Source: a virus
Taxonomy: Duplodnaviria > Heunggongvirae > Uroviricota > Caudoviricetes
Length of the DNA: 44,186 bases
Direction: 5' to 3' (one strand)
IMG/VR virus record: IMGVR_UViG_3300023707_000001
The position numbers and the translations under genes are program-made. Under the pieces are notes generated by a model. The model saw nothing but the letters and a program-made list of their open reading frames with translations, was not told where the DNA came from and ran no database searches. Shown one piece after another: positions 447 to 37,627 of the stretch (position 1 is the first letter of the stretch; every line of letters starts with the position of its first letter).

Positions 447-1607
447 TTAAGCTGTCCATAATGCAAAACGTTTGTTTACGAATTGCTGGGCAACAAATGC
501 CTCATCCGGGTCATCGATAGAATCCAGAATACGACGAATGTCCGGCAATACAGCCTGTTGTTTTGCCATAATCGCTGCGTCTACGCCATCTATGATGTCC
601 TTCAGCGCATAATGCGAATAAGACATTGTATGGGATTCTACGAATGGCTTCAGGTACTCTTTCATATCCTTACCCAAATCCGCAATGTCTCGGTCATCCG
701 GCAATACAACCATTTTGCTGTTATGCACGCCGGCAGAGATTAAGGCCTCCATGGCCTTTACTGTGCCTGAACGCCCTGCCTTATCATTGTCATAACAAAG
801 AATCGGCGTGAAGCCGTGCTCTTTAATGAAGTTGATATGGCTCTCGGATAGCGAGCTGGTCATCGTGGCCACGGCATTGGGTATGCCATATTTGTCCGCG
901 ATGATTGCATCAACCTGCCCTTCCACAATGAACAATGTTTTATTGCTGCGGTTTACAAAGCTGACGCCGTAGAAGTTATCCTTTTTCTTGAAATATTTCG
1001 AGGCGCTGGTATTTTTATACTTGCCTCCAGATTGCTGCGACTTTTGTGAAAAAGCGCGGTTAGAAAAACCGATAACTTCGCCGATGGCATTAAAGATTGG
1101 GAACGTAATCCTATCTCCGTCAAACCCTAAGTGCCATTTTTTAATATCATCGTCATTAAGGCCACGGCAGTAAAGATAATTCCGCACAAATGGCGTAAGG
1201 TTATTCTCATACCGCCGGCAGTCTTTCATATTTTTCTGGTAAACCGAATCGGTCTTCTTTTCTTCCATAGGAATCCCGTATTGGTCCGCAATCACTTTTA
1301 CTGCCTGCGGAAAGCTTAATATCTGCCCTGTTTCATTGTAGTGCATCCATTGGATAAAGGCGATATTATCGCTCCCGCTTACCGGGCCGCTTCTATCGTG
1401 ATGACAGCCATAACAACACCAGGATTCTATTCCGTTGGCGTTATTGGTGTACACCGTAAAAGATGCCGTGCTGTCGTCATGGCTTGGATTAGGGCATTTC
1501 CCCTGCAGGATACCGCTTCCTGCAGGAGAGAGGTTCGTGTAACGGCTGGCAAGCCCTTGGACTCCCAGCCTCTTAATTGTATCAATAAAACCGGGAGATA
1601 AGGACAT
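447..1607 (-). CDS. dnaG: DnaG-type DNA primase (CHC2 zinc finger + TOPRIM)
   Basis: CPNPSHDD...CCYGCH zinc-binding domain; ITFPI..IGFSNR; IVEGQVD and CYDNDKAG TOPRIM motifs. Confidence 0.93.
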   Translation of the reverse strand: MSLSPGFIDTIKRLGVQGLASRYTNLSPAGSGILQGKCPNPSHDDSTASFTVYTNNANGIESWCCYGCHHDRSGPVSGSDNIAFIQWMHYNETGQILSFPQAVKVIADQYGIPMEEKKTDSVYQKNMKDCRRYENNLTPFVRNYLYCRGLNDDDIKKWHLGFDGDRITFPIFNAIGEVIGFSNRAFSQKSQQSGGKYKNTSASKYFKKKDNFYGVSFVNRSNKTLFIVEGQVDAIIADKYGIPNAVATMTSSLSESHINFIKEHGFTPILCYDNDKAGRSGTVKAMEALISAGVHNSKMVVLPDDRDIADLGKDMKEYLKPFVESHTMSYSHYALKDIIDGVDAAIMAKQQAVLPDIRRILDSIDDPDEAFVAQQFVNKRFALWTA

Positions 1608-1610
1608 AGC

Positions 1611-2222
1611 TTATGCCGCCTCCTCTGCCTTATTCGATTTTTTGCGCGGCTTTGCAAGCGTTACCTGCAGGCCGTCTTTCTTGTTGATATGTGCTCCGTG
1701 GATAATGTTGCCTTCCGCATCCACAAAGTTATGGCCGGACTTATCCGTGGTCAGGGCAGACCGCAACTTCGTCTTGTTAATCACCACTTTGTCTTCTGCG
1801 CACTTATCGAAGATGCCGTTAACCCGCAGATACTTAATCAGTTCTGCTTCGTTTTCTGCATCAAGCTCGACAGTGCCAATATCTTCCTTGAGCTGCACAT
1901 TGCCATGGAGAAGCGGATAAGAGCCTTTCTTACCTTTAAGCTTCTGGAATGCGTAGGTCTTAAGCTGTTCCGTTCGGTACTCTACGAAGCTGCGCAGCTT
2001 GCCATTAAGACGCTGGTCGTAATCATCCAGCAACTCTTTAAGCTCCGCCTTTTTCGCCTTTACCAGTTTTTCATTTTCTTCAATTTTCGCTTTTGCCCAA
2101 AGGACTTTAGCGAAAGCATCATCGGCAGCACTATCATCTGCAAAAACAGGGATGATATTTTCTTCTGCCATAACGGTTTTTTCTGCTTCTTTATCGGACA
2201 TTAAGTCCAAAAGCATACCCAT
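1611..2222 (-). CDS. Mu Gam-like DNA end-binding / host nuclease inhibitor protein
   Basis: Long N-terminal helix, then LLHGNVQLK...ELIKYL...INKTKLR pattern typical of the Gam family; ends EEAA. Confidence 0.6.
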   Translation of the reverse strand: MGMLLDLMSDKEAEKTVMAEENIIPVFADDSAADDAFAKVLWAKAKIEENEKLVKAKKAELKELLDDYDQRLNGKLRSFVEYRTEQLKTYAFQKLKGKKGSYPLLHGNVQLKEDIGTVELDAENEAELIKYLRVNGIFDKCAEDKVVINKTKLRSALTTDKSGHNFVDAEGNIIHGAHINKKDGLQVTLAKPRKKSNKAEEAA

Positions 2223-2295
2223 TATCCATCATTCCTTTCTCGGTTTTATTAAAATAGCATCCCCCGGCGGGATTTCCACCGGGATGGGATGCATA

Positions 2296-8214: not shown

Positions 8215-8619
8215 TCAGGCTGCCAATGCAAAACGCATGACAATATCGCCGTTTTCCTTTACTTCCCTCTTAACCGGCATCATGTTCTGCTCTTTTACGA
8301 TGTGCTCGATTTTAACTTCGCTGTACCGCAGGGACAGGTCTTTTGCAAGTTTATTTGCATCAACCGAGCTGCGATAAGCTTCGCCGCCAATCGACAGGGA
8401 AAGCTTTCCTCCCTCTTTCTGCTCAAAATTGAACCGAACATTCGTCGGAGTGCCGTCGAGCAGAAGGGCTGCGTTGTTTTTCCCGAAGCTGGGCACGCCT
8501 GGCAGGTTCTTAAGCAGTTCTACCGAATATTTCTTGTTAATACGGTGAAGTGCTTCTTTTACCATGGGGACAGTAACATCCTCCAGGGCCTTGATTGAGA
8601 TGGTTGCATAATGTGACAT
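8215..8619 (-). CDS. DUF1257 (Ycf35-like) protein
   Basis: Starts MSHYATISIK...MVKEAL and ends ENGDIVMRF, typical of the family; C-terminus RFALAA. Confidence 0.7.
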   Translation of the reverse strand: MSHYATISIKALEDVTVPMVKEALHRINKKYSVELLKNLPGVPSFGKNNAALLLDGTPTNVRFNFEQKEGGKLSLSIGGEAYRSSVDANKLAKDLSLRYSEVKIEHIVKEQNMMPVKREVKENGDIVMRFALAA

Positions 8620-11452: not shown

Positions 11453-12001
11453 TTAGGCGCAATATGCCTTTCTTAAATCATCTTGATATATATTCAATCT
11501 TGTCCAATCATTGTTTTCTCTGTGCCAGAAACCCTGATTTTCGCTGCCGATAACGTGGGTTACTCCAGGAATATCTACTTCGTCAAAAATTCTTTTTCTG
11601 GCTTCATAACATCCGTCGATAATAACATTCGCACGTTTTAATACATCGCTAAATCTCAAACGGATAACTTCCATGGTGTAATGCGTAATTAAAACGACAT
11701 GATAACCATGTTTCTGCAGTAAGGCCATAAGGCGAACCAATTCATCAAATTGGTCCAAAGGCTCCCCGCCAACAATTGTTACAAACTTATTGCCCGCCTC
11801 CTTTATATCACAAAAGAGGTCGTTAACACTTACTTCCGGAAAATATTTTTCATCCCACAAGTCAACATTAAAGCATCCAGGGCAGGGGTGGCCCGAAAGG
11901 GCCATTCTGCAACCTGCCAGGAATACTTCAGTGCGCTTGTCCTCATTTGGGGACAAGCCAGCGGTCGTTGACTGCGGATGTACTGATGCAACTCTCAGCA
12001 C
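11453..12001 (-). CDS. nrdG: NrdG-like radical-SAM activating enzyme with an expanded Cys motif
   Basis: VFLAGCRMALSGHPCPGCFN, TIVGGEPLDQ, IIDGCY, GSENQ; GTG start overlaps the upstream TAG. Confidence 0.75.
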   Translation of the reverse strand: MLRVASVHPQSTTAGLSPNEDKRTEVFLAGCRMALSGHPCPGCFNVDLWDEKYFPEVSVNDLFCDIKEAGNKFVTIVGGEPLDQFDELVRLMALLQKHGYHVVLITHYTMEVIRLRFSDVLKRANVIIDGCYEARKRIFDEVDIPGVTHVIGSENQGFWHRENNDWTRLNIYQDDLRKAYCA

Positions 12002-12735
12002 TACGCAGCAGCTCCCTCCTGTTTTTTCGCCATCAACGATGCCTTGCATTTTGCGACAGCCTCGACAATATTGCTCGGCTTGAGCATTGCAGAGCGGTCA
12101 TTGAAAGCATACCGTGCAACTTCGTTGTAATCCTGCGTCTGGAATTTTGCCATAAACGCATTGATGAACTTAACCTCTTCTGCATGGCGAGCCCAAGCAT
12201 CATTCGTCCATTCATCAAACATGGTTTCACGGAACCACTGGCCGTTATGGTTAGCCGCCTCAATGGCTGCCTGCTCATAACTCTGCGTTTTACCAGCAGA
12301 AAGCTCCAGAGCAAAACCAAAGCTGTATGCAGCTTTTTTCAGCGCATCGGTAGACGCTGATTTGGTAATCATTTCTTCCTTGGTCGGGTCGTACACTGCC
12401 GTACCGAAACCTTCACGCTCGATTTCAACAACCTGGTTGGTTTCCTTGTCAAAGAGCTTGACCGTGATGGTACATTTGACTTCCACTACCGGCTTCGGGA
12501 AGTAATCCTCGTATTCATCCGATTTGTACTTCTTTTTCTTGCACGGCGGGAATGTTCTTACGACCGGGTCTCCATAATGGACGCTAAAGAACGGGCCAAA
12601 TGCCTTTTTCAAGAGCACCAGCATAGACGTACCGCTAATGTAGTCCAGCTGGGTTTTCCCCTTCTTGAGCGGTTCAGTAATACGCGGGTCAAGCGGCTTA
12701 CTGATAATCTCTTCCAACTTATCAACTCTAAGCAT
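12001..12735 (-). CDS. Rad52/Rad22 (Sak-like) ssDNA-annealing protein
   Basis: LDYISG..LL..AFG, REGFG, KSASTDALKKAAYSFGFALEL; GGAGG SD before MLRVDK. Confidence 0.85.
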   Translation of the reverse strand: MLRVDKLEEIISKPLDPRITEPLKKGKTQLDYISGTSMLVLLKKAFGPFFSVHYGDPVVRTFPPCKKKKYKSDEYEDYFPKPVVEVKCTITVKLFDKETNQVVEIEREGFGTAVYDPTKEEMITKSASTDALKKAAYSFGFALELSAGKTQSYEQAAIEAANHNGQWFRETMFDEWTNDAWARHAEEVKFINAFMAKFQTQDYNEVARYAFNDRSAMLKPSNIVEAVAKCKASLMAKKQEGAAA

Positions 12736-12806
12736 GTTTATTTCCTCCAGAGATATATAATATATGCTCCGCCTCGTGTCAGAAACGGGGCATGATGCCA
12801 AAGTCT

Positions 12807-13889
12807 TTAGGCGGCGTTCTTACGAAACATGGAAAGAGCAATGCTGGTTGCTTTCTGGAATTCTGCTGCGCGCTTTACAAAGTATGCTGCGCCGCGCAAA
12901 GCATTTGCATGCTGATAAAGGTCAACCTTGTGCCCTTTCGTATATTCGTAGTTCGCAACCGCGACGGATGCGGCCAGTTTCTTGTCCTTTTCCGTACCTT
13001 CGCAGGTAAGCATAGCGTTTTCCTGCACACGCTTGATAAGGCCGGTATCCTTATTGGTCAGGTTTTCGTATGCAACATGGTAGCCATACTCAATGCCAGC
13101 AATATGCTGCAGAAGAAGCATATTTTTAGCAATCATGGTATCTACCACGGCATCGCTCATACCGGGTTCAAGCGTGATTTCAGACATCAGCTTTTCAATC
13201 TCGCCCTTTTCCTTCAGGAATTCTTCGCCAGGAACCAGGAGCAAGCTGCCGATAAAGTTGCTGTCAACTTCATTGCTGTGCGCAGTAATGATTTCACCTT
13301 CCACAGCCGGCTTAGCTGCCGTTTTGCGGGTACGGCGCGTTTTCTTCGGCTTAGCGACCTCAACTTCAACCTTCGGCTCTTCATCGGCCACAGCTGCCTT
13401 TTCAGCACTTTCCGGCGCTTTCTCTGCCTTGACTTCAACCTTAGGAGCTTCTTCTGCCGGTGCGGCCGGTGCTTCAACGGTGGCTTCTTCCTGCGCCTTT
13501 GCTTCTTCTACGCTTTCAGCCTGCGTCGCTACTTCGGTGTCGTCGGCTTTTTCTGCCTGCTCGGGAACCGGTGCTGCCTCTTCTGCCGGTGCAGTTTGTT
13601 CTTTTTCTGCTTCGTCTGCGGTGTTTTTCGTGCCGTTAATAGCTTCTTCTGCCATTGCCTCCACTTCGGAGAACGGGAACGTATCGTCTTCGGCAGCCTC
13701 TTCCTTGGCCTGCGGTGCCGTTTCTTCTGCCGGCTTTTCTTCTTTTGCGGGCGCTTCAGCTGCTACCGGCTCGTCCTTCTTTTCCTCCGTGGGATTCGGA
13801 CCAAAAATATCGCTGAGGTCGTCACCATCGGGGATGTCCGTCCAAAGGCTATTGATGTCAAAGTCAATATCAACATTCGTGTTTGCCAT
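12807..13889 (-). CDS. Hypothetical protein with long acidic Ala/Glu/Pro disordered N-terminus and helical C-terminal domain
   Basis: About 200 aa of AEEAPA-like low complexity, then a globular-looking region; ends RKNAA. Confidence 0.75.
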   Translation of the reverse strand: MANTNVDIDFDINSLWTDIPDGDDLSDIFGPNPTEEKKDEPVAAEAPAKEEKPAEETAPQAKEEAAEDDTFPFSEVEAMAEEAINGTKNTADEAEKEQTAPAEEAAPVPEQAEKADDTEVATQAESVEEAKAQEEATVEAPAAPAEEAPKVEVKAEKAPESAEKAAVADEEPKVEVEVAKPKKTRRTRKTAAKPAVEGEIITAHSNEVDSNFIGSLLLVPGEEFLKEKGEIEKLMSEITLEPGMSDAVVDTMIAKNMLLLQHIAGIEYGYHVAYENLTNKDTGLIKRVQENAMLTCEGTEKDKKLAASVAVANYEYTKGHKVDLYQHANALRGAAYFVKRAAEFQKATSIALSMFRKNAA

Positions 13890-14658: not shown

Positions 14659-15381
14659 CTAGCTTGCTAGTTTCTCCAGAACTTCATTAAGCATATTGAT
14701 TCTTTCTGACGGCTCAGCCAATTTAAGCTTTGCTTCCAGTTCTTCAACCTTGGCTTTTAATGCCACGTTTTCTGCCTCTAAAACCTGGTTTTTCTTGTTT
14801 AAGAACCTCATACGGTCATCGATTTCGGCAACCTTAATCTCATCTTGCGCAAGTGCCTGCACCCACGACATGACCATATCCTGTTCCATTACAACGAATA
14901 CGCTGCCGGCAGGATTGCCTTCGCTGAAGCGTTCCGCCCGCGTAATCACGGCGCCCTCATCTTCATTAAAGGCAAACTTAAGATGCCAAAAATCCTGGTT
15001 TTTCTTCAATGCTTCCGTATGAAGTTTATTGAGCCATTCCCGCTTAATACTAAAGGACTTGCACCCACGAGCCCTTTCAGGCTCCTGAGTTTTCAGCTCC
15101 TCCATCAGGCGGTATGCTCCGATGACGATATTCTCGTCACCCTTTTCTTTGTTGGTAGCGCCGCTGTTAATAGTCATCCTTGATGACAGGATTTCTACAT
15201 TGCGGTCGTGATTGGCCTTCTCAAACCCGCTTCCCATACGCTTATCAGCCTTCTGGGAATGCCGACGCACGGGTGTGCGCCTTTTGGGTTCCTTGTAATT
15301 CATGCCATTTGAGCAGAAGAAACAACTGCTTCTGTCAGTAAGGCAATCGTCATAGCCATACTTACAACTTTCGTTACTCAA
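14659..15381 (-). CDS. PD-(D/E)xK Holliday-junction-resolvase-like nuclease with N-terminal Cys cluster and C-terminal coiled coil
   Basis: GSGFEK...NSGAT..KGD...EELKT...SFSIKREWLNKL. Confidence 0.6.
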   Translation of the reverse strand: MSNESCKYGYDDCLTDRSSCFFCSNGMNYKEPKRRTPVRRHSQKADKRMGSGFEKANHDRNVEILSSRMTINSGATNKEKGDENIVIGAYRLMEELKTQEPERARGCKSFSIKREWLNKLHTEALKKNQDFWHLKFAFNEDEGAVITRAERFSEGNPAGSVFVVMEQDMVMSWVQALAQDEIKVAEIDDRMRFLNKKNQVLEAENVALKAKVEELEAKLKLAEPSERINMLNEVLEKLAS

Positions 15382-15908
15382 GCTGCATCATCCTGTTCAT
15401 CTATATCGACTTTTTCAACGCCAGCCTTTTCCATCTCTTCGTTAAGCTCTTTTTCAGCCTTTTCGATTTCCGTGATTTCTGCTTCCGACATGTTTTCAAC
15501 GTCGCCGGTTACGCCATCCAGCATACTTACGAGCGTATCAAACTTGGTCGGATTAGCAATCATATCTTCCTTAAAGCGCTGTTTACCCTGCCATTTGAAT
15601 TCCGGGTCAACAGAACCGTCTTCCAGATGGAGAGAGAGCCATGCGCCACGGGCGTCAATGATTCCACGGTTAACGAGCTGCTGCAAGGTAGAGAAGTATT
15701 TCTCGATGCCCTGGCCATACTCAACGTAATAGATGAGATTAACGTACGGATTGCGGTCAATAACGCAGTGATTCTTTGTTACCCGAACCTTAATCTTAAG
15801 GCCCGTTTCTTTTGTAATCGGGTCAGAATCGTCCGGCGTAAGCTTGCTGAACTCCAGCGTCACCATGTTATTATAGCGAATTGCCTTGCCGCCGGCAATC
15901 ATATTAGG
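15378..15908 (-). CDS. recA: RecA exon 2
   Basis: PNMIAGGKAIRY...KVRVTKNH...YGQGI...GAW...KWQGK; joining to exon 1 gives MYGN|PNMIAGGKAIRY, matching RecA MFGNPETTTGGRALKF. Confidence 0.9.
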   Translation of the reverse strand, partial: PNMIAGGKAIRYNNMVTLEFSKLTPDDSDPITKETGLKIKVRVTKNHCVIDRNPYVNLIYYVEYGQGIEKYFSTLQQLVNRGIIDARGAWLSLHLEDGSVDPEFKWQGKQRFKEDMIANPTKFDTLVSMLDGVTGDVENMSEAEITEIEKAEKELNEEMEKAGVEKVDIDEQDDAA

Positions 15909-17499
15909 CTATCCCAATGTATATTTTCATATACCACAAAGCTGTGTTTGGGGGTGGACTATATCATCGCTCCGGGGGCTCACTCCCCCCATCATCACGC
16001 CTTGCACTTGGGCTACAGGAATTTCACCTGTGCCTACTCTACTCGCTTATCAACCCTGCCGATTCTCACGGCTCTTATGGATATATAGCTTTCGATAGTC
16101 TCTACACCTTCCTCGTATATCCTACGAGGCTTGGCACGGTATTGGCTGCTATCCATCTCTGGACCGTAGCGTCTCTTACGAAGCGTATTCGCGCATCTTT
16201 TGCCTTATATAACTTCTACCGTTAGCCCAACTTTATTGGACACCCTAGATTTCTAGGTTCACAAGGTTTTTGGAAACCCATAATATTGCTTAACTTTATC
16301 CTGCATTTTTCTAAAAATATACTTTTGAACGCTGCCTGGGTCATTGTCCAGATCACATTCTGCAATCTGAACTACCTCATACCCCATCTTTTCTGCACTT
16401 AGCCTCTTCTTCTCATCGTTATCTCTTACGGAATCGGTCGAGTGCCAATATGTACCTTGGACTTCAACAAGTAAGAAGAAGCCGAGGTCATAGTCATAAC
16501 GCCAGCCATTAATCTCTTGCTGTGGGATGAAGCTAAAATGCAAGTTTGATAAAATTTCTTCAAACTTAATTTCGGCTGTAGAACGATAGAACCATGTATT
16601 TCTTTTCGTTTTCCACCCAGAACCAAAGATTTGGCGACGTGCCTTCGAGAACGATGCCTCAGACATTTTGTACTTAAGGGCAAGTGCTCTGTTGGATATA
16701 AAAGGATTCTTAAAGTCATCCTGAAACTCTTGCGTTGAAGGAATTATATATTCCCCATTTTCATGGCATAAAATATTATTGTCCTTCAAGAACTTTACAA
16801 GTGCCAATACAGAAACATTTATGTGTTCAGCAATTTCCAGTAAGGACACGCCCTTCTTCCCGCTATGGGACATTTGTTCTTTCACGGCGTTAATAACATA
16901 TTCCTGTTCATCCTTCTTCCATATTTTTCCTATACCATGGTTGATACATGGAGTTTTCTTAATCCCCATGATTCTTGCCTGTTTTAGGATATGGGATTTT
17001 GAACACTTAAAATGTTTTGCTATATCCTCTACCGTACATTTGTCAGACATGTACATTTTTCGTAGCTCAGTTAGCTTTTGCCGGCCCCACACATCACGGT
17101 TTCGGTAAACCCTCTCGTAATCTACGTTAATATTATACTGTGTCCTTAATACCCTTTCAAGTACAACTTTGTCTTTATGCACTTTTTTGGCTATTGTTCC
17201 AAATGCAACACCTTTGGATATAAGCTCCCTTATTGTATTAAGCTGTTCTAAGGTAAGAGTTTCTACTGTTAAATTGTTTGACTTAAGGACTCTCGCAACA
17301 GTGCTCCTGCCCCTATTTATCGTTGCGGCAATCCTTGATATGTTCATGCCGCTACTTGCCAATTCTTTTATGCGCTCAATTTCGTTATCTGTTATTCTTT
17401 TCTTAGACTTCATAATACCACTACTTTCAAAAATTAAGATTAAGTGCTATTAAGTTCTAAGTATATTTTTGCAATCAGGCTTTGTTAAGCTGCCAGTTG
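15909..17499 (-). mobile_element. Group I intron in recA (1591 nt) carrying a homing endonuclease
   Basis: 5' exon ends in U and intron ends in G. Core motifs GAAGGUGUAGAGACUA and GAUAUAGUCC (P7). Internal guide sequence (IGS) AUAUUAUGG-GUUUCCA at 16271-16286 pairs with both exons. Splicing restores the frame. Confidence 0.92.
16259..17413 (-). CDS. Intron-encoded endonuclease: tandem HTH repeats + Vsr/DUF559-like (EDxHD-type) domain
   Basis: About five HTH-like repeats, then STAEIKFEEIL...YDY...VEVQGTYWH...RDNDEKK...GYEVVQI. Confidence 0.8.
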   Translation of the reverse strand: MKSKKRITDNEIERIKELASSGMNISRIAATINRGRSTVARVLKSNNLTVETLTLEQLNTIRELISKGVAFGTIAKKVHKDKVVLERVLRTQYNINVDYERVYRNRDVWGRQKLTELRKMYMSDKCTVEDIAKHFKCSKSHILKQARIMGIKKTPCINHGIGKIWKKDEQEYVINAVKEQMSHSGKKGVSLLEIAEHINVSVLALVKFLKDNNILCHENGEYIIPSTQEFQDDFKNPFISNRALALKYKMSEASFSKARRQIFGSGWKTKRNTWFYRSTAEIKFEEILSNLHFSFIPQQEINGWRYDYDLGFFLLVEVQGTYWHSTDSVRDNDEKKRLSAEKMGYEVVQIAECDLDNDPGSVQKYIFRKMQDKVKQYYGFPKTL

Positions 17500-19115: not shown

Positions 19116-21602
19116 TTAAGCTGCCGATTCTTCGATGGTTTCAGCTTCCTCGGACGGAGCCAGGGTGATGGATGCAATTTCTGCACCATCTGCCAAGTTA
19201 ATTGCCTTTACTCCGTGTCCGCTACGGCTCTGGGTGCTGATATCCTTGACCGGCGTGCGGATAATCATGTCATTTGTCGTAACAACAAATAAGGTTTCAT
19301 CCTCATCCGCTTTTACAACAGCCATGGCATGTCCGCTCTTTGGCGTCGGTTTGTAGATTGTAATACCCTTACCACCGCGCCCTTTCTTCTGCGGAATGTC
19401 CGTCATACTGCAGCGCTTACAGAGCCCCTTATCCGATACGACAAGCAGGGTATCGTCGCTTGCTGTGGATACGGCAGAGATTATATAATCATCTTCCGTC
19501 TTAAACCGCATAGCGATATTCCCCTTGGCCGTACGGCTGGTAAGCGGAATATTCTCCATCCCCGTATGAACAGCAAAGCCGTTTCGAGAAACCAGAACTA
19601 CACTTCCTTCGCCGGTTGTCAAAATGACACTTGCAAGGCCGTCATCATCATTGAGCGTAATGACCTTTAATCCGTTCTTGCGGATAGTCATATTCTCCAG
19701 ACTGATACGTTTTGCAAGCCCATTCTTCGTAACCATAAGAAGCTGATGGGTTGTATCGCCATGTGCAATCGCAAATACTTTTACAACCTTTTCGCCATCC
19801 TCAAAGGTGACATAGTTATTAAGGTACTTGCCCATAGCTGCCTTAGAGACAATGGGGATGTGGTATGCAGGAACCGTGTAGGCCTTGCCCTTATCCGTAA
19901 CGATAACAATATCGTCCTTGTTGCTCATATAGAGAACTTCTTCGACAAAATCATCTTCGCGGAGCTTAATCCCATTGCCTTTACCACCGCGGCTCTGCTG
20001 GCCGTAATCCTTGGAACGGATTGCCTTGACCATACCGTTGTGCGTGTAGAACATTACAATGTTCTCGTCCTCGATAAGGTCACGGTCATTCACCTCATTG
20101 CACAGCTGTGCAATTTCTGTGCGTCTTGCGTCGCCTTTGAAATAACCTCTGGCAATATAGTTGTCAATATCCTGAACAAAGTCCTGTATCAGTGCGACCT
20201 TATTGCTGAGAAGGTGTTTGCCGGCCAAGATTTTCTTCTTCAGTTCTTCTGCCTCCTCAATCAATGCGTTCACATCAAATGAATTCAAAGAACCAAGCTG
20301 GCGAGCATAAAGACCCTTTGCCTGCGCTTCGGTAAAGTCAAATTTCGACATAAGATTGGTGATGGTTTCCTCACGGTCCTTAGAACCACGAATAACCTTA
20401 ATCACTTCATCAATTCGAGAATTGGCATTGATATACCCCTGCACAAGCTCTAAACGCTTTGCATGCTGTTCCATATCAAAACGGATAACCCGCACTTTAG
20501 ACTGGAGCTGGCTTTTAATGTATAGCTCGATTATCTGTAGCAGAGACAACCCTTCAACCGGGCGGCCGTCCACCAGCATAACCGAATTAATGGAAAAAGT
20601 ACTTTCCATTTTTGTCTGCTTAAAAATGTTATTAAGGACGATGTCGGGATTACCGTTTTTCTTCAATTCGATACAGATTGCGATTTTCCCTTTTTCGGAC
20701 CTATCGACTACGTCTGCCACATTATCCTTAAACACTTTGTCAGCCTCTTCATTATACACCTTTTTCCCAAGGTCTTCAACCAAAGATTTTTTGTTGATAC
20801 CGTATGGGATTTCGGTGAATATGATGGTTGTGCGCCCTCCGGATTCCTTGATTTCGTACTTGCCGCGAATACGAATACTCCCCTTACCTGTTCGGTAAGC
20901 CTTACGGGCTTCTTCCGGATTAACAATTACACCTCCTGTCGGAAAGTCCGGTGCTTTCACGATGTTAATAACATCGTCTAATTTTGGCTGCTCGCCCTTA
21001 ACTACGCAACCAAGCACATGTTTGATTGCTGCAAAAATATCGCCGGCGTAATGAGGCGCCATGGACGACGCCATACCGGTTGCGATACCGGTTGTTCCAC
21101 AGCAGAGAGCATACGGGAAAATTCCGGGCAGGTTTTTTGGTTCTTTTTCGTGCCCATCAAAGTTCGGAACCATATCCACCGCATTCTTGTCAAGCCCTTC
21201 CAGCATGGATTCACCAATTTTGGAGAGCTTGCATTCCGTATATCTCATTGCAGCGGGTGGGTCTCCATCTATGGAGCCACAATTGCCCTGAAACGTAATC
21301 ATCGGATATCTTTTGGTCCAGGGTTCCGCAAGGCCAACTAATGCGTCATAGGCGCTCTGGTCACCATGAGGATTGTATTTACCAATTACATCACCGACTA
21401 CGCGGGCACATTTCTTGGGCACCGCTGAGTTTTTAAGCCCCATCTCATACATAGAATAGAGCGTATATCGTTGTGACGGTTTTAATCCGTCCTGCACCTT
21501 AGCCAAAGCGCGGGAGAGGATAACCTCTTCCGCGTAAGTAAGGTACAAAGATTGAACAAGTTCTTCCGCACGAACATCAACAATTCTGTTATTTTCACTC
21601 AT
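19116..21602 (-). CDS. gyrA: DNA gyrase subunit A
   Basis: QDGLKPSQR, GKYNPHGD, AAMRYTE (catalytic Tyr), PDFPTGG, GyrA-box QSRGGKG, beta-pinwheel repeats, acidic tail. Confidence 0.95.
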   Translation of the reverse strand: MSENNRIVDVRAEELVQSLYLTYAEEVILSRALAKVQDGLKPSQRYTLYSMYEMGLKNSAVPKKCARVVGDVIGKYNPHGDQSAYDALVGLAEPWTKRYPMITFQGNCGSIDGDPPAAMRYTECKLSKIGESMLEGLDKNAVDMVPNFDGHEKEPKNLPGIFPYALCCGTTGIATGMASSMAPHYAGDIFAAIKHVLGCVVKGEQPKLDDVINIVKAPDFPTGGVIVNPEEARKAYRTGKGSIRIRGKYEIKESGGRTTIIFTEIPYGINKKSLVEDLGKKVYNEEADKVFKDNVADVVDRSEKGKIAICIELKKNGNPDIVLNNIFKQTKMESTFSINSVMLVDGRPVEGLSLLQIIELYIKSQLQSKVRVIRFDMEQHAKRLELVQGYINANSRIDEVIKVIRGSKDREETITNLMSKFDFTEAQAKGLYARQLGSLNSFDVNALIEEAEELKKKILAGKHLLSNKVALIQDFVQDIDNYIARGYFKGDARRTEIAQLCNEVNDRDLIEDENIVMFYTHNGMVKAIRSKDYGQQSRGGKGNGIKLREDDFVEEVLYMSNKDDIVIVTDKGKAYTVPAYHIPIVSKAAMGKYLNNYVTFEDGEKVVKVFAIAHGDTTHQLLMVTKNGLAKRISLENMTIRKNGLKVITLNDDDGLASVILTTGEGSVVLVSRNGFAVHTGMENIPLTSRTAKGNIAMRFKTEDDYIISAVSTASDDTLLVVSDKGLCKRCSMTDIPQKKGRGGKGITIYKPTPKSGHAMAVVKADEDETLFVVTTNDMIIRTPVKDISTQSRSGHGVKAINLADGAEIASITLAPSEEAETIEESAA

Positions 21603-21631: not shown

Positions 21632-23200
21632 TTATGCGGCAAACGTGGTTGCCATAATCATTTCCTTACGGGGTGCTACGTTTGCTCCAAGGCATGTTTC
21701 GAGCATCTGCTCTGCAACCACGGCATCTTCTACCGTTACACGGCGAAGAATTCGCGTTTCAGGATTCATGCTCGTTTCCCACAGCTGTTCGGCACTCATT
21801 TCGCCCAGCCCCTTAAATCGAGAAATCGTCCAACCATTAAGTTCATCACGAACAGCATTCAATTCTGCAGTGGTATAGAACCAACGGTCCTTTTGGCCCT
21901 TCTTAACCGCTCTGAACAATGGCGGTTGCGGGATATATACATGCCCATGAATAATCAGTAGCGGTGCATGTCTCCAGATATGGCCAATATGCAGGATGAT
22001 AATATGTCCACCATCACTATCTGCATCGGCAAACAACATAATCTGGTCGTAGTTGAGCTTGGACTCATCAAATTCATCATCGATACCACAACCCAGCGCG
22101 GCATAGAAGACGCCAAGCTTGTCATTATCGAGGACTTCTTTTGTACTCATGCCATCTTTAACTGCATTCTTTACCTTACCAAAGATTGGAAGTATTGCCT
22201 GCGTCTCCGGATCGCGCCCCTCTTTTGCAGACCCTGCGGCCGAATCTCCTTCAACTGCCCAAAGCTCAGCTTTGCTTGGGTCTTTTGTATGGCAAATCAC
22301 TAATTTACCAAGCGTTTTGAGTTTAGGATTAGCCGCCTTGCCGTTTTTAACACGCTCTCTGGCCTCTTTCGCCTTAATACGCATCTTGCGGTACAGCAAT
22401 GCTTTCTCCAGAATGACCTCGGCTTCTTTGGGATTCTGCTCAAGATAATCATAGAACACATCCTGCAAGGCATTTGCGATAATGGTTCTTACCTTAGGCA
22501 TATCCAACTTGGTTTTGGACTGCCGGTCAAAAGTGGGCTTTTTATAGCGCACCGCAATAATACCAACAATGCCACGATTCGTATCGTTTAACTCAAAGTC
22601 TTTCTTTTCTTTGATTTTTTTCTTTTCGATACCGTACTTACGGATAGCATCGCAGATGCCCTGAGTAAAGCCCTGAACATGTGTGCCGCCATCTTCGGTG
22701 TCGATAGAATTTACAAAGCTCTTAAGAGACTGATCTTCCCTGGTTGTATACCCAAAGGAGATATCAAACGACAAATCACGCGGCAAATCTTTCGCCGGCA
22801 CGGTTTTATTCAAATGGATTTTGGTTTCTACCGCAAGCTCCTTGCCCTTAAGGAGCTGTTCGAGATATGCCTTCAGGCCATCTGTATAACAGAAACTCTT
22901 TTTTGCTACCTTCCCTTCCGGGTTGATAATTGCCACGTTAACCTTAAGCTCATTGTTAAGGAATGCCATCTGCTGGCACATTTCCATAAGGCTTATCGGA
23001 TTAACTACAATATCATCAAACATGGTCGCATCCAACTTGTAGGTGATGGTTGTACCATGCTCATTTTCACCGCAGGTTCCCACGACTTTCTGGCGCTCTT
23101 TATAGAGGCCCTTTTCGAAAGACACACGATAGACTTTGCCCATTGCACGTACTTCCGAGACGAACAAATCGGACAAAGCGTTCACTACAGATGAACCCAT
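21632..23200 (-). CDS. gyrB: DNA gyrase subunit B exon 3
   Basis: MGSSVVNALS, GGTH, VEGDSAAGS, PIFGKVKN, ADADSDGGHI, RFKGLGEM. Confidence 0.95.
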   Translation of the reverse strand: MGSSVVNALSDLFVSEVRAMGKVYRVSFEKGLYKERQKVVGTCGENEHGTTITYKLDATMFDDIVVNPISLMEMCQQMAFLNNELKVNVAIINPEGKVAKKSFCYTDGLKAYLEQLLKGKELAVETKIHLNKTVPAKDLPRDLSFDISFGYTTREDQSLKSFVNSIDTEDGGTHVQGFTQGICDAIRKYGIEKKKIKEKKDFELNDTNRGIVGIIAVRYKKPTFDRQSKTKLDMPKVRTIIANALQDVFYDYLEQNPKEAEVILEKALLYRKMRIKAKEARERVKNGKAANPKLKTLGKLVICHTKDPSKAELWAVEGDSAAGSAKEGRDPETQAILPIFGKVKNAVKDGMSTKEVLDNDKLGVFYAALGCGIDDEFDESKLNYDQIMLFADADSDGGHIIILHIGHIWRHAPLLIIHGHVYIPQPPLFRAVKKGQKDRWFYTTAELNAVRDELNGWTISRFKGLGEMSAEQLWETSMNPETRILRRVTVEDAVVAEQMLETCLGANVAPRKEMIMATTFAA

Positions 23201-24318
23201 CATTATGTTCACGGAGTTCGCTACTCTCCGCAGCTTTTAAAAGCATCTCTGGCTCTCACCAGAAGTTCAGACTATATCTTCGTTCAAGGATGGCTAGTCC
23301 TATCATCACGCCTTCCATTTTGATTTAAGGGGTTTTCACCCACCCGCTCGGGCCCTACTCCTGTTGGTGCGGTCGAATCCACACCCCAATGGGGATAGTC
23401 GTTGAACCTTTTACTTTAACTTACATATCCTAATTCGGATTCTTTTTGTTTTCTTACTGCAATAGCAAGCTCTAATGCGTTTGGATATTTCTTGGTGGAA
23501 AATTTTTTGGAGTGAACCTTTCCGTCATTTTCCATCCATGATGCCCGGATATATTCCGCACCATTTCTGCCAATCTCTTTTGAGATTCCATTGCACCCAA
23601 ACTTATTAGTTTTTCTTGGCGCAGAATTGCGCTTGTTTATCGAAGTCGTTACAACTCGCAAATTACTAAGTTGGTCATCAAGGCCATTCCTGTTAATGTG
23701 ATCGACAACTTTCTCGACATCTTCTTTCTTAAGCCCTAACAAAAATCTGTGAAGCTTCCCATACTTATCCGATGCGGCATAGTATGTTCTTGAATTTGTC
23801 GGTATCTCTATAAACCATTTTGCTTGTTGTACTTCTTCAATCTTGTCTTTATCAAACAAAACCTTGCATTCTTTCTGTAGCTTTGCGCTCCATACAAGCA
23901 TTTCCGCATGGTCTTCTTTTTCGATAATATAGTTTTGCAGTTTCTTTCTCTTCTCGAGAGACTGTTTAGCAATTTTCTCTGCAATAGTTCCATATTTACT
24001 GATTGTGTAGTTGTATTGTTTACTATCAACACATGTCTGAAAACCTTTTCCCGTTTTCCGTACACATTCTAATTTTGCTGTCACGTTTTCCTCCTTCCTT
24101 TGGAGGTATGTAAGTAAAAGTAACTTGGCTGCGTGGTTGCCCATACTTATCTCTTGCCTTTTTACCGTACCCGGCTAATTACTCCGGCCATCATGTCTGT
24201 CACCAGCATGACTTGGTAGCTAAGAGCTCTTAGGGATTAGAGCCTCCGCCAAGAGGCCATTTTTTCGTTCCCGCAGTTAAAAAGATTTTAGAACGGCATG
24301 GGGTTATGCTGCCTGTTC
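23201..24318 (-). mobile_element. Group I intron gyrB-I2 (1118 nt)
   Basis: P1 AGAACGGU/GCCGUUCU (8 bp, G-U at the splice site); P10 CCCAU/AUGGG; AACUGCGGGAA...ACGCAGCCAAG; AAGGUUCAACGACUA and GAAGAUAUAGUCUG; terminal G. Confidence 0.93.
23416..24084 (-). CDS. Intron-encoded HNH homing endonuclease with AP2-like domain
   Basis: LHRFLL...VDHINRNGLD..SNLR..T.SINKRN followed by AP2-like GISK...RASW...KKFS...LAIAVR; GTG start after AAGGAGG. Confidence 0.88.
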   Translation of the reverse strand: MTAKLECVRKTGKGFQTCVDSKQYNYTISKYGTIAEKIAKQSLEKRKKLQNYIIEKEDHAEMLVWSAKLQKECKVLFDKDKIEEVQQAKWFIEIPTNSRTYYAASDKYGKLHRFLLGLKKEDVEKVVDHINRNGLDDQLSNLRVVTTSINKRNSAPRKTNKFGCNGISKEIGRNGAEYIRASWMENDGKVHSKKFSTKKYPNALELAIAVRKQKESELGYVS

Positions 24319-27719: not shown

Positions 27720-28484
27720 TTAAGCGGCTTTACGGAACAATTCATTTACCTTGCCTGCGATGTACGCAGAAATCATGCGCACAACAGGCGGATTGTAGAT
27801 GTTACGGTCGTTGTGGGACGTAAACATGCCGTCGCTTGCTTCGGAGATGCGGGTATCGAGCCATTTTGCGTCAATATTGCCAGACGCAACGCCGTCTACG
27901 CATACCTTTTTCAGCAGACGTGCTGCCTTCATCATTTCGATATTCGCCTTCATAGCCTCAGTCCAGGTGTTATCGACTTCGTCCGAGGTAAGGTGCTTGT
28001 TTTTCCATTCATCGGATTTGATGTCGATTTCTTTCTTCGGCGGTGCTGCAGGTGCAGGAGCCGGAGCAGGTGCTGCGGACGGAACCTGTGCACGAGGATT
28101 CATGTTTACAAGAGCCGGGCTGCTCTGCAAATCCGCTACTGACGGAACAGGAGCATTTGCCGGGATAGCCGTGCCATCCTTAAGCGTGGCTGCAGCTTCC
28201 TTTTCAGCCTTGTTGGGAACGGAAAGCATTTCGTTGATGGCCTGTGCCTCTTTCTGGCTTACAGGCTTGCCTTTCAGCTCTACGGTTTCTTTGGCTTTTG
28301 CTTCCTGCGTCTTTTTCGACTTTTCCGCTGCGTTGGCGACGAATTCCGTCAACGTTACGCCGGTTGCATGAATCGTTTTGGCAAGTTCCAGAGCCAACCG
28401 TGCATGCTGGTACGGGTCGGTAATCTTGCTCAGGGCATTCCCTGCATCGTCAAGCAGAATCTGAATTGCTTCATTGTTGTTCAT
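27720..28484 (-). CDS. Hypothetical protein with Ala/Pro-rich linker
   Basis: Start MNNNEA after AAAGGGG; APAPAPAP linker; ends FRKAA. Confidence 0.7.
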   Translation of the reverse strand: MNNNEAIQILLDDAGNALSKITDPYQHARLALELAKTIHATGVTLTEFVANAAEKSKKTQEAKAKETVELKGKPVSQKEAQAINEMLSVPNKAEKEAAATLKDGTAIPANAPVPSVADLQSSPALVNMNPRAQVPSAAPAPAPAPAAPPKKEIDIKSDEWKNKHLTSDEVDNTWTEAMKANIEMMKAARLLKKVCVDGVASGNIDAKWLDTRISEASDGMFTSHNDRNIYNPPVVRMISAYIAGKVNELFRKAA

Positions 28485-28503
28485 AAATATTCCCCTTTCT
28501 TTT

Positions 28504-29886
28504 TTATGCTGCTGTTGCATGTACATATTCTACAGACAGCTTCTTTGTTTTTACGGCTTCTTCGGTAAGACGAAGAATCGGCTTGGTTCCTTCATTGGCC
28601 TGCTCGCTGATTTGCGGCAGGTCATACATGGTATCCAGCAGAATCCCCTCGATAATCGTACGAAGCGAACGCGCACCTGTACCGGTCTTAATTGCTCTTC
28701 GTGCAATCTCTCGCAGAGCTTCACGGTCAGGTCTGAGTTTGCAGCCATCCATATCGAATAATACGGCAAATTGCTTTACAATGGCGTTCTTCGGTTCGGT
28801 AAGGATACGAACCAAGTCATCTTCCTTCAACTGGTGCAGTTTACACATAATAGGAAGTCGGCCAAGCATTTCCGGAATGATACCATATTCCTTCATGTCA
28901 TCCGGCGTAACTTCTTCGATAAGGCGGTTGAAGCGATCTGCTTCATCGTTGAGCTCATCAAGACCAAGTTCGTCTTTGTGCGTATAGCCAAAGCCATTAT
29001 CGGTCTCAATCCGTTTGGAAATAATCTTATCGATTCCTTCAAATGCGCCACCACACACAAACAGGATGTTTGTGGTATCTACTTCGATAGTCGGGGCGTC
29101 AGGATGCTTACGGTTACCCTGCGTGAAGTGTACTTTTGTACCTTCTACGATTTTCAGCAGGGCCTGCTGTACGCCTTCGTGTCCGGGGTCAGCAGATGTG
29201 GAGCGATTTGTGCCAGACTTGCGGGCAATCTTATCGAATTCGTCAAGGAAAATAATTCCCCGCTCAGTCTTTTCGCGGTCTTTCCCTGCTTCCTCCCACA
29301 ACTGGCGGACACAGGTTTCCGGGTCGGAACCAACGTATCCGGACTGGGTTAACGTACTGGTATCGATTACGGTAAAAGGAACGCCAAGATAAAGTGCAAT
29401 CGCTTTTAATATTGCCGTTTTACCAACGCCGGTCGGTCCGACCATAAGAATGTTACTCTTATCAAGCTGGGTGAGCCCTTCTGCCTTCTGACCGGTTTTC
29501 AACTCCTTGTACTTCTGCGCTTCAAAGAACGCAAGGCGTTTGTAGTGGTTATAAACAGCCACGGAAAGAATCTTCTTTGCTCCGTCCTGGCCAATAATGT
29601 ACTTGTCAAGATGGGCCTTAATCTTTGCAGGAGATTCGTTGGACATCACCTCGAAAAGACGGCTGGCGATATCTTTCTGTACCTGTAATCTGTTTGCCTT
29701 AATCTGTTCGGCCTCCAAATTACTCATGCCGTTATTTTCATAACGCTGTTTTGACGCTGCCATGGCCAACATCTTCTGTGCACAAGAAAAGCAAAGAGCC
29801 GTGCCTGTTTCGGGGTCATGGAACATCATTTCATTTTCCAATTCCTCGTCCGGTATCTCTTTGCCGCAAGAACTACATTTAATCAT
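28504..29886 (-). CDS. clpX: ClpX AAA+ unfoldase
   Basis: C4 zinc-binding domain, YIIGQDGAKKILSVAVYNHYKR, GPTGVGKT, GYVG pore loop, LDEFDK, EGVQQALLK, RKH loop, GARSLR. Confidence 0.95.
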   Translation of the reverse strand: MIKCSSCGKEIPDEELENEMMFHDPETGTALCFSCAQKMLAMAASKQRYENNGMSNLEAEQIKANRLQVQKDIASRLFEVMSNESPAKIKAHLDKYIIGQDGAKKILSVAVYNHYKRLAFFEAQKYKELKTGQKAEGLTQLDKSNILMVGPTGVGKTAILKAIALYLGVPFTVIDTSTLTQSGYVGSDPETCVRQLWEEAGKDREKTERGIIFLDEFDKIARKSGTNRSTSADPGHEGVQQALLKIVEGTKVHFTQGNRKHPDAPTIEVDTTNILFVCGGAFEGIDKIISKRIETDNGFGYTHKDELGLDELNDEADRFNRLIEEVTPDDMKEYGIIPEMLGRLPIMCKLHQLKEDDLVRILTEPKNAIVKQFAVLFDMDGCKLRPDREALREIARRAIKTGTGARSLRTIIEGILLDTMYDLPQISEQANEGTKPILRLTEEAVKTKKLSVEYVHATAA

Positions 29887-29903
29887 TTTTCGTTTCACCT
29901 CCT

Positions 29904-30476
29904 TTAAGCTACCGATTTTTCAGTATTCGGGGTCCAGATTTTACGCTTCTTATTGCCGACGATTTCGTCGATAATGCCGTATTCGAGTGCTTCCTCTGCC
30001 GTCATCCAGCGGTCGCGGAAGGTATCTTCCTTATACTCTTCTACGGTCTTTCCGCAGTTTTCTGCAATCATCTTTGCCAGCTCGTCATTAAGACGCTCCG
30101 TTTCCCGCAGGGAGATAAGCATGTCCTGAATATTGCCCTGCGCACCGCTTGATGCCTGATGAATCATCACGCGGGAATGCGGAAGTGCCATGCGCTTAGC
30201 TCCGCAGGAAAGAATTGCTGCACCCATGCTTGCGCACATATGCGTATTGATGGTAAATACCATGCTTTTCAGGCTGTTCATCGTGTCGATAATGGAGAGG
30301 CCTGCGCCGATTTCACCACCCGGGCTGTTAATATACAGCATGATTGGCTTTCTGCCTTCATCATCGAGCGCCTGAAGTTCACTACATACCTCTGCAGCCA
30401 TAGCGCTGTTAATGTCCGTGTCAATACGCACGATTCGATTATCGTATAGTTTTTCTTTTACTTTGATTAATACCAA
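29904..30476 (-). CDS. clpP: ClpP peptidase
   Basis: YINSPGG, CASMGA (Ser), MIHQ (His), RDRWM (Asp), EALEYGIID; TTG start after AAAGGGGG. Confidence 0.93.
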   Translation of the reverse strand: MVLIKVKEKLYDNRIVRIDTDINSAMAAEVCSELQALDDEGRKPIMLYINSPGGEIGAGLSIIDTMNSLKSMVFTINTHMCASMGAAILSCGAKRMALPHSRVMIHQASSGAQGNIQDMLISLRETERLNDELAKMIAENCGKTVEEYKEDTFRDRWMTAEEALEYGIIDEIVGNKKRKIWTPNTEKSVA

Positions 30477-30518
30477 AATTATTGCCCCCTTTATTGATGA
30501 ATTTTGAGTTGATAATAG

Positions 30519-30615
30519 CCCACCAAGAAAAGGTGGGATGAAGATAAAGCGCGCCAAAGGCGCAAGAAAAACAAGACAATGCACCCCGAAGGGGTGCGAA
30601 GGGCTCGAAGAGCCC
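30519..30615. promoter_or_regulatory. Four tandem short hairpins in the clpP leader
   Basis: CCCACC/GGTGGG, GCGCC/GGCGC, GCACCCC-GAA-GGGGTGC, GGGCTC-GAA-GAGCCC. Confidence 0.5.
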
Positions 30616-30622
30616 AACGGCC

Positions 30623-35502: not shown

Positions 35503-35525
35503 TTTTGCATCTTCCTTTCTTGTTA

Positions 35526-35870: not shown

Positions 35871-35873
35871 ACT

Positions 35874-36335: not shown

Positions 36336-36356
36336 GTTTATTCCTCTTTCTAACTG

Positions 36357-37196
36357 TTAAGCCGCAATTTCTTCTACGTGCTGCTCTTTTCCGGGAATTA
36401 TCTTGCAGGCTGTCGTAATCTGGCCTGTTACAAAATAATTTACCGAATCTATAGTGTCCTTTTCAAAAGGCTTGCTCCAGAACGATACCGATATTTTACG
36501 GTTATGGTACTTCCACCAATAGCTTGGGGCGTTTCCGTAATACGCATACGGCTCCCCACATAGCTTTTCGACAAGCCACTGTGCATCTACAAAAGCATGC
36601 TTGTCGGCAGGGTTTACATCGCCAAATTCTTTATACAAAATGCGCGCCTGCACATAATCCACAACATCTGCGTTTTCCGCGCACAAGTCCAAGAGTTTAC
36701 CAAGCTCCCCGCCGTTATAGCGATTGAGCACCATGGTGAATCTGCAGGTTTTATGTTCCGCCCGCAGCCAATCAATAATGCCCTGCCAGTCCGGAATATC
36801 CTCGCGTCCGCAAATGGACTTATTCTTTACCCTGCTCAATGCCTGAACGGAAAAGGAGATTTCTGCATTCAATTTGCGGAACACATTGATATTATCCCAA
36901 AAGAGATACCCGTTTGTACGGATACCGACCGAAATTCCCCGCTCGATAAGTATGTCAGTGATTTCATTGAGATACTTATACAGTAACGGGTCTGTCTTTA
37001 TACTGGACAGATATACCGTCGTAATTTCCTTTTCCGCCAGGAGTTCAAGAAATTTATCGAAATTCCGAAACTCCTGTGGCGGCGTAGCCATTGTTATTTG
37101 TTCTTCCTTTGTTGTTGCGCTTGCTTCTTTGCCGATACAATAGAAGCACTTGCAGTTGCAGTAACCAAGGAAGTATATTTCTCCATACCGATTGAT
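36357..37196 (-). CDS. Radical SAM protein (start extended upstream of the ORF-track call)
   Basis: In-frame CNCKCFYC (CxxxCxxC) lies upstream of the ATG at 37091; RTNG motif; no ATG/GTG/TTG before the motif; ATC 9 nt after AGGAG. Confidence 0.75.
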   Translation of the reverse strand: MNRYGEIYFLGYCNCKCFYCIGKEASATTKEEQITMATPPQEFRNFDKFLELLAEKEITTVYLSSIKTDPLLYKYLNEITDILIERGISVGIRTNGYLFWDNINVFRKLNAEISFSVQALSRVKNKSICGREDIPDWQGIIDWLRAEHKTCRFTMVLNRYNGGELGKLLDLCAENADVVDYVQARILYKEFGDVNPADKHAFVDAQWLVEKLCGEPYAYYGNAPSYWWKYHNRKISVSFWSKPFEKDTIDSVNYFVTGQITTACKIIPGKEQHVEEIAA

Positions 37197-37237
37197 TTTC
37201 TCTCACTCCTGTCGTATAAGGGTTTTAGGAATCGCTA

Positions 37238-37627
37238 TTAAGCTGCCTTAACTTCTCCGGTACTCTTTTCGATGGCGTCGTATATTTTTTCAGCCTGCCA
37301 CATTACAGCTTCCTTAGGACTAATTGAAAAATTTTCCGGAGAAAGCACCATGCACTTCATGCCGTATTTTTTACCGTTAACAATTTTCTGCATAGATACT
37401 ATGTAGTGACTGGCATCCTTCAGGAAGTTTTCTTTTGCAACACCCTGGCCGCCAAGAATTTCTTTTTCTCTTAACCTGCCAAGGTTTGCAATTCTTTCAG
37501 CGTTATTGACAAGGTCTGACCAATCCGACAAGATTACGGGGATTTTTACGGTCTCACCGCCAACTTCCTTTGTGATATCGACCTGAATCAATTCGTTCGT
37601 GTTATTTTTCATCGTTTTTTTCTCCAT
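37238..37627 (-). CDS. Hypothetical protein
   Basis: 129-aa ORF; ends EVKAA. Confidence 0.65.
   Translation of the reverse strand: MEKKTMKNNTNELIQVDITKEVGGETVKIPVILSDWSDLVNNAERIANLGRLREKEILGGQGVAKENFLKDASHYIVSMQKIVNGKKYGMKCMVLSPENFSISPKEAVMWQAEKIYDAIEKSTGEVKAA

Follow-up and report, generated by a model that had tools for sequence, protein, structure and literature searches.

A C-terminal Ala-Ala dipeptide is the best understood degradation signal of bacteria, known as an added tag or on a few regulators. Here, we describe proteins whose own genes encode such an end in a phage genome that also carries genes for the protease ClpXP. The DNA analysed (the window) is a stretch of 44,186 nucleotides, bases 52,705-96,890 of one 206,782-bp virus record (IMGVR_UViG_3300023707_000001, 44% G+C), with almost all of its genes on the minus strand. 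The phage under study is called G0. G1, G2 and G3 are related IMG/VR contigs, found through ClpX and a conserved 622-aa protein and then compared as whole contigs; L208/L205 and L206/L203 are more distant syntenic lineages, found through homologs of a 360-aa Ala-Ala (AA) protein of the window (12807..13889).

ClpXP C-degrons are determined above all by a terminal Ala-Ala-COOH (PMC7652416, PMC10862746); in E. coli this end is required without being enough on its own, a Leu upstream strengthens the tag, and at position -3 a polar residue, Gly, Ser, Pro or His weakens it (PMC10862746). Favourable upstream residues, as in YALAA, are Leu at -3 and a hydrophobic or aromatic residue at -5. A free C-terminal AA is the key feature of the tmRNA (ssrA)/ClpXP system, as it is in G0, which has a tmRNA (with a tag ending in YRLAA), ClpX and ClpP. 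However, the ssrA tag is added co-translationally, whereas in G0 the AA is gene-encoded on 28 unrelated native proteins, the YAL-type upstream residues are mostly absent from the tails, and the phage encodes no SmpB.

Natural ClpXP substrates of the C-motif-1 type, such as Caulobacter CtrA and other cell-cycle proteins, also end in AA, and their turnover in Caulobacter is timed by adaptors; this class was reportedly treated by Flynn et al. in 2003. Like the G0 proteins, they are native, act in regulation or on DNA and have the AA written in their own genes, and there ClpXP sets their stability. In bacteria, however, they are a handful among thousands, while in G0 they make up about 27% of one viral gene class, with no known adaptor. 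A further likeness is to alanine tailing by RqcH (Bacillus), in which proteins left incomplete in Firmicutes receive C-terminal alanines that mark them for ClpXP. In G0, incomplete products of intron read-through would likewise end in alanines, and the strong AGGAGG-type ribosome-binding sites of the phage suggest that its host belongs to the same phylum. RqcH alanines are untemplated and added on stalled 50S subunits, whereas the G0 tails, including those of intron read-through, are templated. ClpX proteins from many phyla share about 45-51% identity with that of G0, which points to no single host, and megablast with 12 kb of the window found no match among GenBank phages.

Huge phages, e.g., Bacillus phage G, encode a clpP-clpX pair and a tmRNA (PMC12484599), which G0 shares. 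However, phage G has no AA enrichment (2/494), its tmRNA tag ends in QVA and its RKH region looks canonical, while ClpX and ClpP of G0 are atypical in the pore-2 loop, the IGF loop and N-terminal features. Our literature search found no paper on proteome-wide encoded AA ends in phages. The parts are thus known (ssrA/ClpXP, natural AA substrates, phage ClpXP with tmRNA), and it is their scale and arrangement that appear new.

Ala-Ala ends are enriched in replication and recombination genes

Genes of the whole G0 genome were called by a codon-usage score, which gave 302. AA ends were found in 28 of their products, compared with 1.7 expected from an Ala content of 7.5% (binomial p 5e-25) and 1.8 expected from the internal frequency of AA dipeptides. 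Ala was the last residue of 57/302 proteins (22.5 expected), and Val-Ala ranked third among all endings (n=10). The first-pass annotation, made on the window, had listed eleven AA ends there, eleven further proteins ending in Ala after another residue, and none with Ala at the end past 37.6 kb. All of these were recovered, the eleven AA ends on the minus strand, and the open reading frame (ORF) of recA exon 1 (QLAA) was added as a twelfth; the whole-genome dipeptide count shows that the window held only half of the pattern.

The ends are restricted to a class of genes. In the replication and recombination block of the window (block A) together with a second block outside it (block B, genome 159-196 kb), 26/95 proteins end in AA, in comparison to 2/207 elsewhere (Fisher p 1.3e-12, odds ratio 39). 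Among the proteins of the second cluster are a PcfJ-like one, an SF1 helicase and many that belong to no known family. Equal enrichment in virion genes, named in the first-pass annotation as the outcome contrary to its idea, was not observed: AA ends occur in 1/50 genes of the plus-strand block, which was counted as virion from PHROG tail-fibre and tail matches on a sample of its genes. They are entirely absent from the block of small genes and tRNAs (~105 genes). As a rough background, 80 bacterial clpX neighbourhoods gave 10/682 AA ends, a figure that is not made of independent cases since the same orthologs recur.

When the 28 AA proteins were compared with one another, no similarity was detectable, so their ends were fixed independently. 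As the first-pass annotation had noted for the window, AA ends draw on every one of the four Ala codons and three stop codons, and the SSB ends in DWPF. No common motif was found in the DNA 3' of the stop codons of the AA genes. Position -3 of the 28 tails is K, I, L, A, S or E (Leu in 3/28), K, E and D prevail at positions -4 and -5, and a hydropathy comparison showed charged residues to be modestly more frequent in AA tails than in the tails of other proteins.

Over the whole G0 genome, Ala is also over-represented at position -7 from the C-terminus (36/302 compared with ~23 expected).

The protein end is conserved in relatives

An excess of AA ends was also found in three related contigs, namely G1 (25/189), G3 (18/209) and a third one (7/142). 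We compared the C-termini of those G0 AA proteins that have an ortholog at >=40% identity (n=20), and the AA proved to be conserved. Positions -1 and -2 were each identical in 19/20 pairs and positions -3 to -10 in only 8-13/20, while among proteins not ending in Ala 40-51/73 were identical at each of these positions. The sequence before the retained AA may diverge widely, as in ClpX (...HATAA / ...MPQAA), GyrA (...EESAA / ...EGAAA) and a 152-aa protein (...NNKAA / ...DKEAA), and the terminal Ala codons themselves differ synonymously in 19/36 cases. Retention of the last two residues along with upstream divergence and synonymous codon change points to selection acting on the protein end and not on the nucleotides, which agrees with what the first-pass annotation had proposed from codon usage. 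Since AA and VA are exchanged between orthologs (ClpP SVA / AAA; RLAA / RRVA), the functional motif is probably [Ala/Val]-Ala-COOH.

Most intron read-through peptides end in Ala-Ala

Both recA and gyrB are interrupted by introns, and an unspliced mRNA would yield a truncated protein. In G0, recA exon 1 (17485..18228, minus strand), recognised by homology to the intact RecA of G1, matches it up to ...MYGN and is followed by four intron codons, QLAA, and a stop; exon 2 (15378..15902, minus strand) ends in DDAA and aligns to residues 242-407 of G1 RecA. A search of G0 with G1 GyrB (tblastn) located a 17-codon gyrB micro-exon ending in ...GGKNG, directly 3' of which intron 2 reads EQAA-stop (24304..24318, minus strand). 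A different gyrB intron in G1 reads WNLNLAA-stop. Thus, three of the four intron read-through peptides end in AA (the fourth is KNKF-stop), which by chance would occur at ~1e-6, given ~0.5% per tail. The three intron starts are unlike one another except for GCAGC(T/A)TAA. At the same two sites in an AA-poor lineage an immediate stop is found, in recA of L203 and, after ...GKNG, in gyrB of L206. On a truncated RecA or GyrB fragment an AA end makes sense as disposal, and this is the strongest hint to the meaning of the ends, fitting a "destroy" signal.

The recA and gyrB introns (window 15903-17484 and 23213-25896) carry ORFs for homing endonucleases. Their positions are common to G0 and the distant L206/L203, while in G1 recA is uninterrupted and gyrB has another intron, so introns have been gained and lost among close phages.

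ClpX, ClpP and tmRNA of the phage

ClpX of G0 (28504..29898, minus strand) has 464 aa, ends in ATAA and aligns to E. coli ClpX structures over residues 88-432 (E 1.5e-97). It matches the Pfam families AAA_2, AAA and ClpB_D2-small and has Walker A and B motifs (GPTGVGKT, FLDEFDK). Its N-terminus has a CxxC...CxxC arrangement (CSSC...CFSC, residues 8-40) suggestive of a C4 zinc ribbon, with no Pfam zf-C4_ClpX match at E<=0.001. The pore-1 loop GYVG and the RKH loop (GNRKHP), the sites of Tyr153, Val154, Arg228 and His230, are present in ClpX of G0 and G1; L208 has GYVG but RRN, and L206 has GFVG with RKH. Of 72 bacterial ClpX proteins, none has an AA end (mostly they end in ESA or ETA), whereas the phage ClpX does so in three lineages.

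The preceding gene encodes ClpP of about 190 aa (29904..30476, minus strand; Pfam CLP_protease 4.6e-54), ending in SVA. The Ser-His-Asp triad is present (ASMG, MIHQ and RD(R) align to H. pylori ClpP). The clpP gene begins at a TTG codon, 7 residues ahead of the aligned core, compared with 22 in H. pylori ClpP, and ClpP of L206 and L208 is likewise of 190 aa with a short N-terminus. The C-terminus varies, being AAA in G1, KAA in L208 and TES in L206. About 150 nt upstream of the TTG codon (window 30477-30626) are conserved between G0 and G1 with indels of 1 and 2 nt. As these are not multiples of three, the region upstream of 30476 is non-coding and the start of the longer clpP ORF is wrong. 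The same region has three GC-rich tetraloop hairpins, the second of which is followed by ATTGTCTTGTTTT; it looks like a terminator and leader ahead of the clpP-clpX operon.

Downstream of clpX, and overlapping it by 23 nt, which implies translational coupling, lies the gene of a 268-aa protein ending in RKAA (27720..28526, minus strand) with no match in Pfam, PHROG or Atlas. Its N-terminus is helical and is followed by an Ala/Pro-rich linker and then a C-terminal domain; the AA end is kept by every homolog and lineage examined (P0002-P0004; AAA in L208, PAA in L206). The protein is a candidate ClpX adaptor, regulator or primordial substrate.

The tmRNA gene lies outside the window (genome 136,923-137,323, minus strand) and fits the RF00023 covariance model over its full length with 90.7 bits. 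The tag predicted by ARAGORN is DEVEYRLAA in G0 and DEAEYRLAA in G3. No SmpB (PF01668) match was found in the G0 genome at E<=0.1, so the tmRNA would need SmpB of the host.

Ala-Ala ends as probable encoded ClpXP tags

On balance, we think it probable that the AA ends are an encoded, ssrA-like tag (ClpX C-motif-1) read by ClpXP of the phage, of the host or of both. Selection would have fixed [A/V]A tags on about a quarter of the proteins of replication, recombination and nucleotide metabolism, Val-Ala probably being interchangeable with Ala-Ala. The free Ala-Ala-COOH would be held in the axial pore of the ClpX hexamer and the protein unfolded and passed into ClpP, so that its lifetime would be fixed and limited. 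The truncated proteins made from unspliced recA and gyrB mRNAs would be removed likewise, beside chains tagged by the phage tmRNA. We infer the recognition, the degradation and the ClpXP that would act from the observed enrichment, class restriction and conservation and from the presence of ClpX, ClpP and tmRNA. That the tails are linked to the phage's own rather than the host's protease is likewise presumed.

Several observations weigh against such a tag. The first concerns the protease itself. The first-pass annotation had considered both ClpX loops intact, which is true of GYVG and RKH but incomplete. In E. coli ClpX, Thr199 and Val202 of pore-2 contact the terminal Ala and its carboxylate (PMC7652416). 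The pore-2 loop of G0 diverges strongly, with TNRSTSADPGHEGV versus the near-invariant NPSITRDVSGEGV of 72 bacterial ClpX proteins, and HMMER aligns Ser and Pro at Thr199 and Val202, respectively. The T199S change is mild in E. coli ClpX. The ClpP-docking IGF, found in the great majority of bacterial ClpX proteins examined, is FGY in G0, where the hydrophobic-Gly-aromatic pattern is kept, and G0 ClpP is without ~15 N-terminal residues which in bacterial ClpP form the axial gate.

The tails themselves are a second concern. With Leu at -3 in few of the 28 and K, E or D at -4 and -5, many of them would be weak by E. coli rules; such weakness agrees with lifetimes that are graded or with dependence on an adaptor, and could equally mean another reader. 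Furthermore, a destruction tag on essential enzymes, and on ClpX and ClpP themselves, looks costly.

Finally, possession of ClpXP does not predict AA tails. With the same gene caller, AA enrichment was absent from four other ClpX-encoding huge phages: three IMG/VR genomes with 4/475, 1/212 and 3/217 AA ends, one of which has the same G+C as G0 and a tmRNA tag ending in AIAA, and phage G. ClpX of the L208/L205 and L206/L203 lineages is 50-56% identical to that of G0. L208/L205 has clpP-clpX and AA ends in 7/31 genes (ClpP KAA, ClpX VAA, the ClpX neighbour AAA, guanylate kinase FAA, GyrB FAA, RecA DAA and Rad52 EAA). L206/L203, however, has the same operon and AA in just 2/37 (the ClpX neighbour PAA and Rad52 GAA), other ends being TSA for ClpX, which is bacterial-like, TES for ClpP and VQQ for GyrA. 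As L206/L203 and phage G have ClpXP and few tails, possession of ClpXP is not sufficient for the tails. The AA load is thus a lineage trait over a shared ClpXP operon, and it is dispensable for the basic function of the enzymes. Rad52 and the 268-aa protein have kept AA in all lineages and are perhaps the original clients.

No relative without clpXP was found among the relatives examined. G2 and G3 were considered as such and rejected, as synteny shows that these contigs end ahead of block A. A tie between AA tails and an RKH-bearing ClpX was also rejected: of the phages with RKH, phage G is without tails and L206 has few, whereas tails are many in L208, where the loop reads RRN. RKH is absent from ClpX of five other IMG/VR huge phages.

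A possible wider reading and other explanations for the Ala-Ala ends

The divergent pore-2 and IGF loops of ClpX and the gate-less ClpP suggest a co-evolved, maybe orthogonal, pair. In an extended form of the tag reading, which we put forward tentatively as possible rather than probable, this orthogonal ClpXP would read AA and VA ends as a lineage-specific lifetime code. It would set the turnover of about a quarter of the proteins of the replication module, limit ClpXP itself and dispose of unspliced-intron peptides, and the code would be gained or lost wholesale between sister lineages. The divergent ClpXP and the tmRNA in the same phage strengthen the case for an AA code. If the AA ends of so many unrelated enzymes are such tags, phages regulate their own proteome post-translationally at a large scale, a control layer which is almost unexplored, and the phage would offer synthetic biology a natural set of degron variants with a possibly orthogonal protease pair. 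The AA-rich and AA-poor sister lineages with the same ClpXP operon are a natural contrast that makes the idea testable.

The first-pass annotation had proposed that the replication machinery, and ClpX with it, is destroyed in a timed manner by ClpXP of the phage (or of the host), for example when replication gives way to packaging; we consider the form with the phage ClpXP. The tags are indeed restricted to genes of replication and recombination, virion genes lack them, and clpP-clpX lies inside the tagged block, with both proteins ending in A. However, a constitutive tag gives constant turnover unless an adaptor or the expression of ClpXP is timed, the sister lineage with ClpXP manages almost without tags, and our promoter and motif analysis gave no temporal information. 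We regard this timing as unlikely.

Alternatively, AA might be a non-destructive handle for remodelling or disassembly by ClpX (as with the MuA transpososome), for delivery to a site, or for binding by e.g., the 268-aa protein. Many tagged proteins belong to multi-subunit DNA machines (GyrA/B, RecA, Rad52, helicases), and with atypical docking and pore-2 loops and a gate-less ClpP the coupling to proteolysis may be unusual. Nevertheless, AA on intron read-through fragments suits disposal and not remodelling, and in every lineage an intact ClpP shares one operon with ClpX. Such a handle is a rather improbable solution.

The ends could also be read by another C-end reader of the host (ClpAP/ClpCP, Lon, FtsH or a PDZ-type C-terminal protease), with the phage ClpXP serving e.g., turnover of host proteins. 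This would account for the uncoupling of ClpXP possession from AA load across phages, and of the five ATP-dependent proteases of E. coli, four are able to recognise an ssrA tag (PMC10862746). An unbiased screen in E. coli, however, found strong C-terminal degrons from ClpXP only, and these were AA-terminal (PMC10862746), so that we give little credence to a different reader. Least credible of all is a by-product of gene calling or of a nucleotide constraint (termination context, DNA or RNA motif): EE ends of G0 do coincide with GAGGAG Shine-Dalgarno sequences and are probably nucleotide-driven, but AA ends use all Ala and stop codons, retain the residue through synonymous change, share no motif after the stop, are not produced by the same caller in four control phages and are lacking in highly expressed virion genes.

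Ala-Ala proteins of the window and their neighbours

Pfam matches in the window comprise primase, SNF2 helicase, PcrA/UvrD, AAA ATPase, NrdG-type activase, UDG, Gam, Rad52, RecA, GyrA, GyrB, Bro-N, SSB, ClpX, ClpP, ThyX, thymidine kinase and radical SAM. The gene names of the first-pass annotation were thereby confirmed except for the DUF1257 label of a 134-aa protein (8215..8619, minus strand), which could not be reproduced and for which neither Pfam nor PHROG gave a match. This protein ends in ALAA and its orthologs in ALAG (G1) or VAG (L203, L205), so the AA is specific to G0.

The remaining AA proteins of the window are also encoded on the minus strand. The Mu Gam-like protein (1611..2222; Pfam Phage_Mu_Gam) ends in EEAA, as does its G1 ortholog. 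The Rad52-type annealing protein (12001..12801; Pfam Rad52_Rad22) ends in GAAA and keeps AA in every lineage seen (AAA in G1, EAA in L205, GAA in L203). Next to it, the 360-aa protein with the end KNAA has a strong codon bias and no Pfam or PHROG match; its close homologs end in NAA or HAA, and distant ones in KVA (four), LQD or KLY. The RecA end is DDAA in G1 and SDAA in L205. GyrA (19116..21602; Pfam DNA_topoisoIV and DNA_gyraseA_C) ends in ESAA, with GAAA in G1, DDE in L205 and VQQ in L203, while the C-terminal exon of GyrB (21632..23212; Pfam DNA_gyraseB, Toprim and DNA_gyraseB_C) ends in TFAA, which is found in G1 and L205 too. A radical SAM protein (36357..37091; Pfam Radical_SAM) ends in EIAA. 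The final AA gene ahead of the small-gene block encodes a 129-aa protein (37238..37627) with the end VKAA and no Pfam or PHROG match.

Promoters, terminators and other observations

A TGTAAGTAAG motif occurs in about nine intergenic regions, usually a few bases 3' of sigma-70-like promoters resembling TTGACA-17-TATAAT. Its sites include window positions 423 and 33089 and genome positions 37691, 50704, 127483, 145375, 167590 and 196896, and its role may be that of a leader or of a processing signal. After block B genes (genome 180585, 181762 and 184167) and once 5' of clpP, a GC-rich hairpin precedes ATTGTCTTGTTTAYTTTG; these hairpins are probably intrinsic terminators of the phage. The promoter and motif analysis showed no clear link of either the TGTAAGTAAG leader motif or the terminator-like hairpins to the AA tags.

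In the small-gene block (genome 90-144 kb, its first part being 37.7-44.2 kb of the window) many C-termini are acidic, and EE is the second commonest end (12 genes). It often coincides with GAGGAG just 5' of the stop codon, i.e., the Shine-Dalgarno sequence of the next gene, and this C-terminal bias in tightly packed genes is probably nucleotide-driven, unlike that of AA.

A tRNA island of G3 (L041:2575-2667) holds a 93-nt tRNA with the anticodon TTA, a putative TAA suppressor according to ARAGORN. Since TAA is the stop codon of most genes, its read-through late in infection could change C-termini. In G1-G3 (e.g., L016-L019) we also observed a plus-strand region of ~100 kb with 1-4 called genes per 10 kb and no counterpart in G0, which could result from giant ORFs or from a coding peculiarity.

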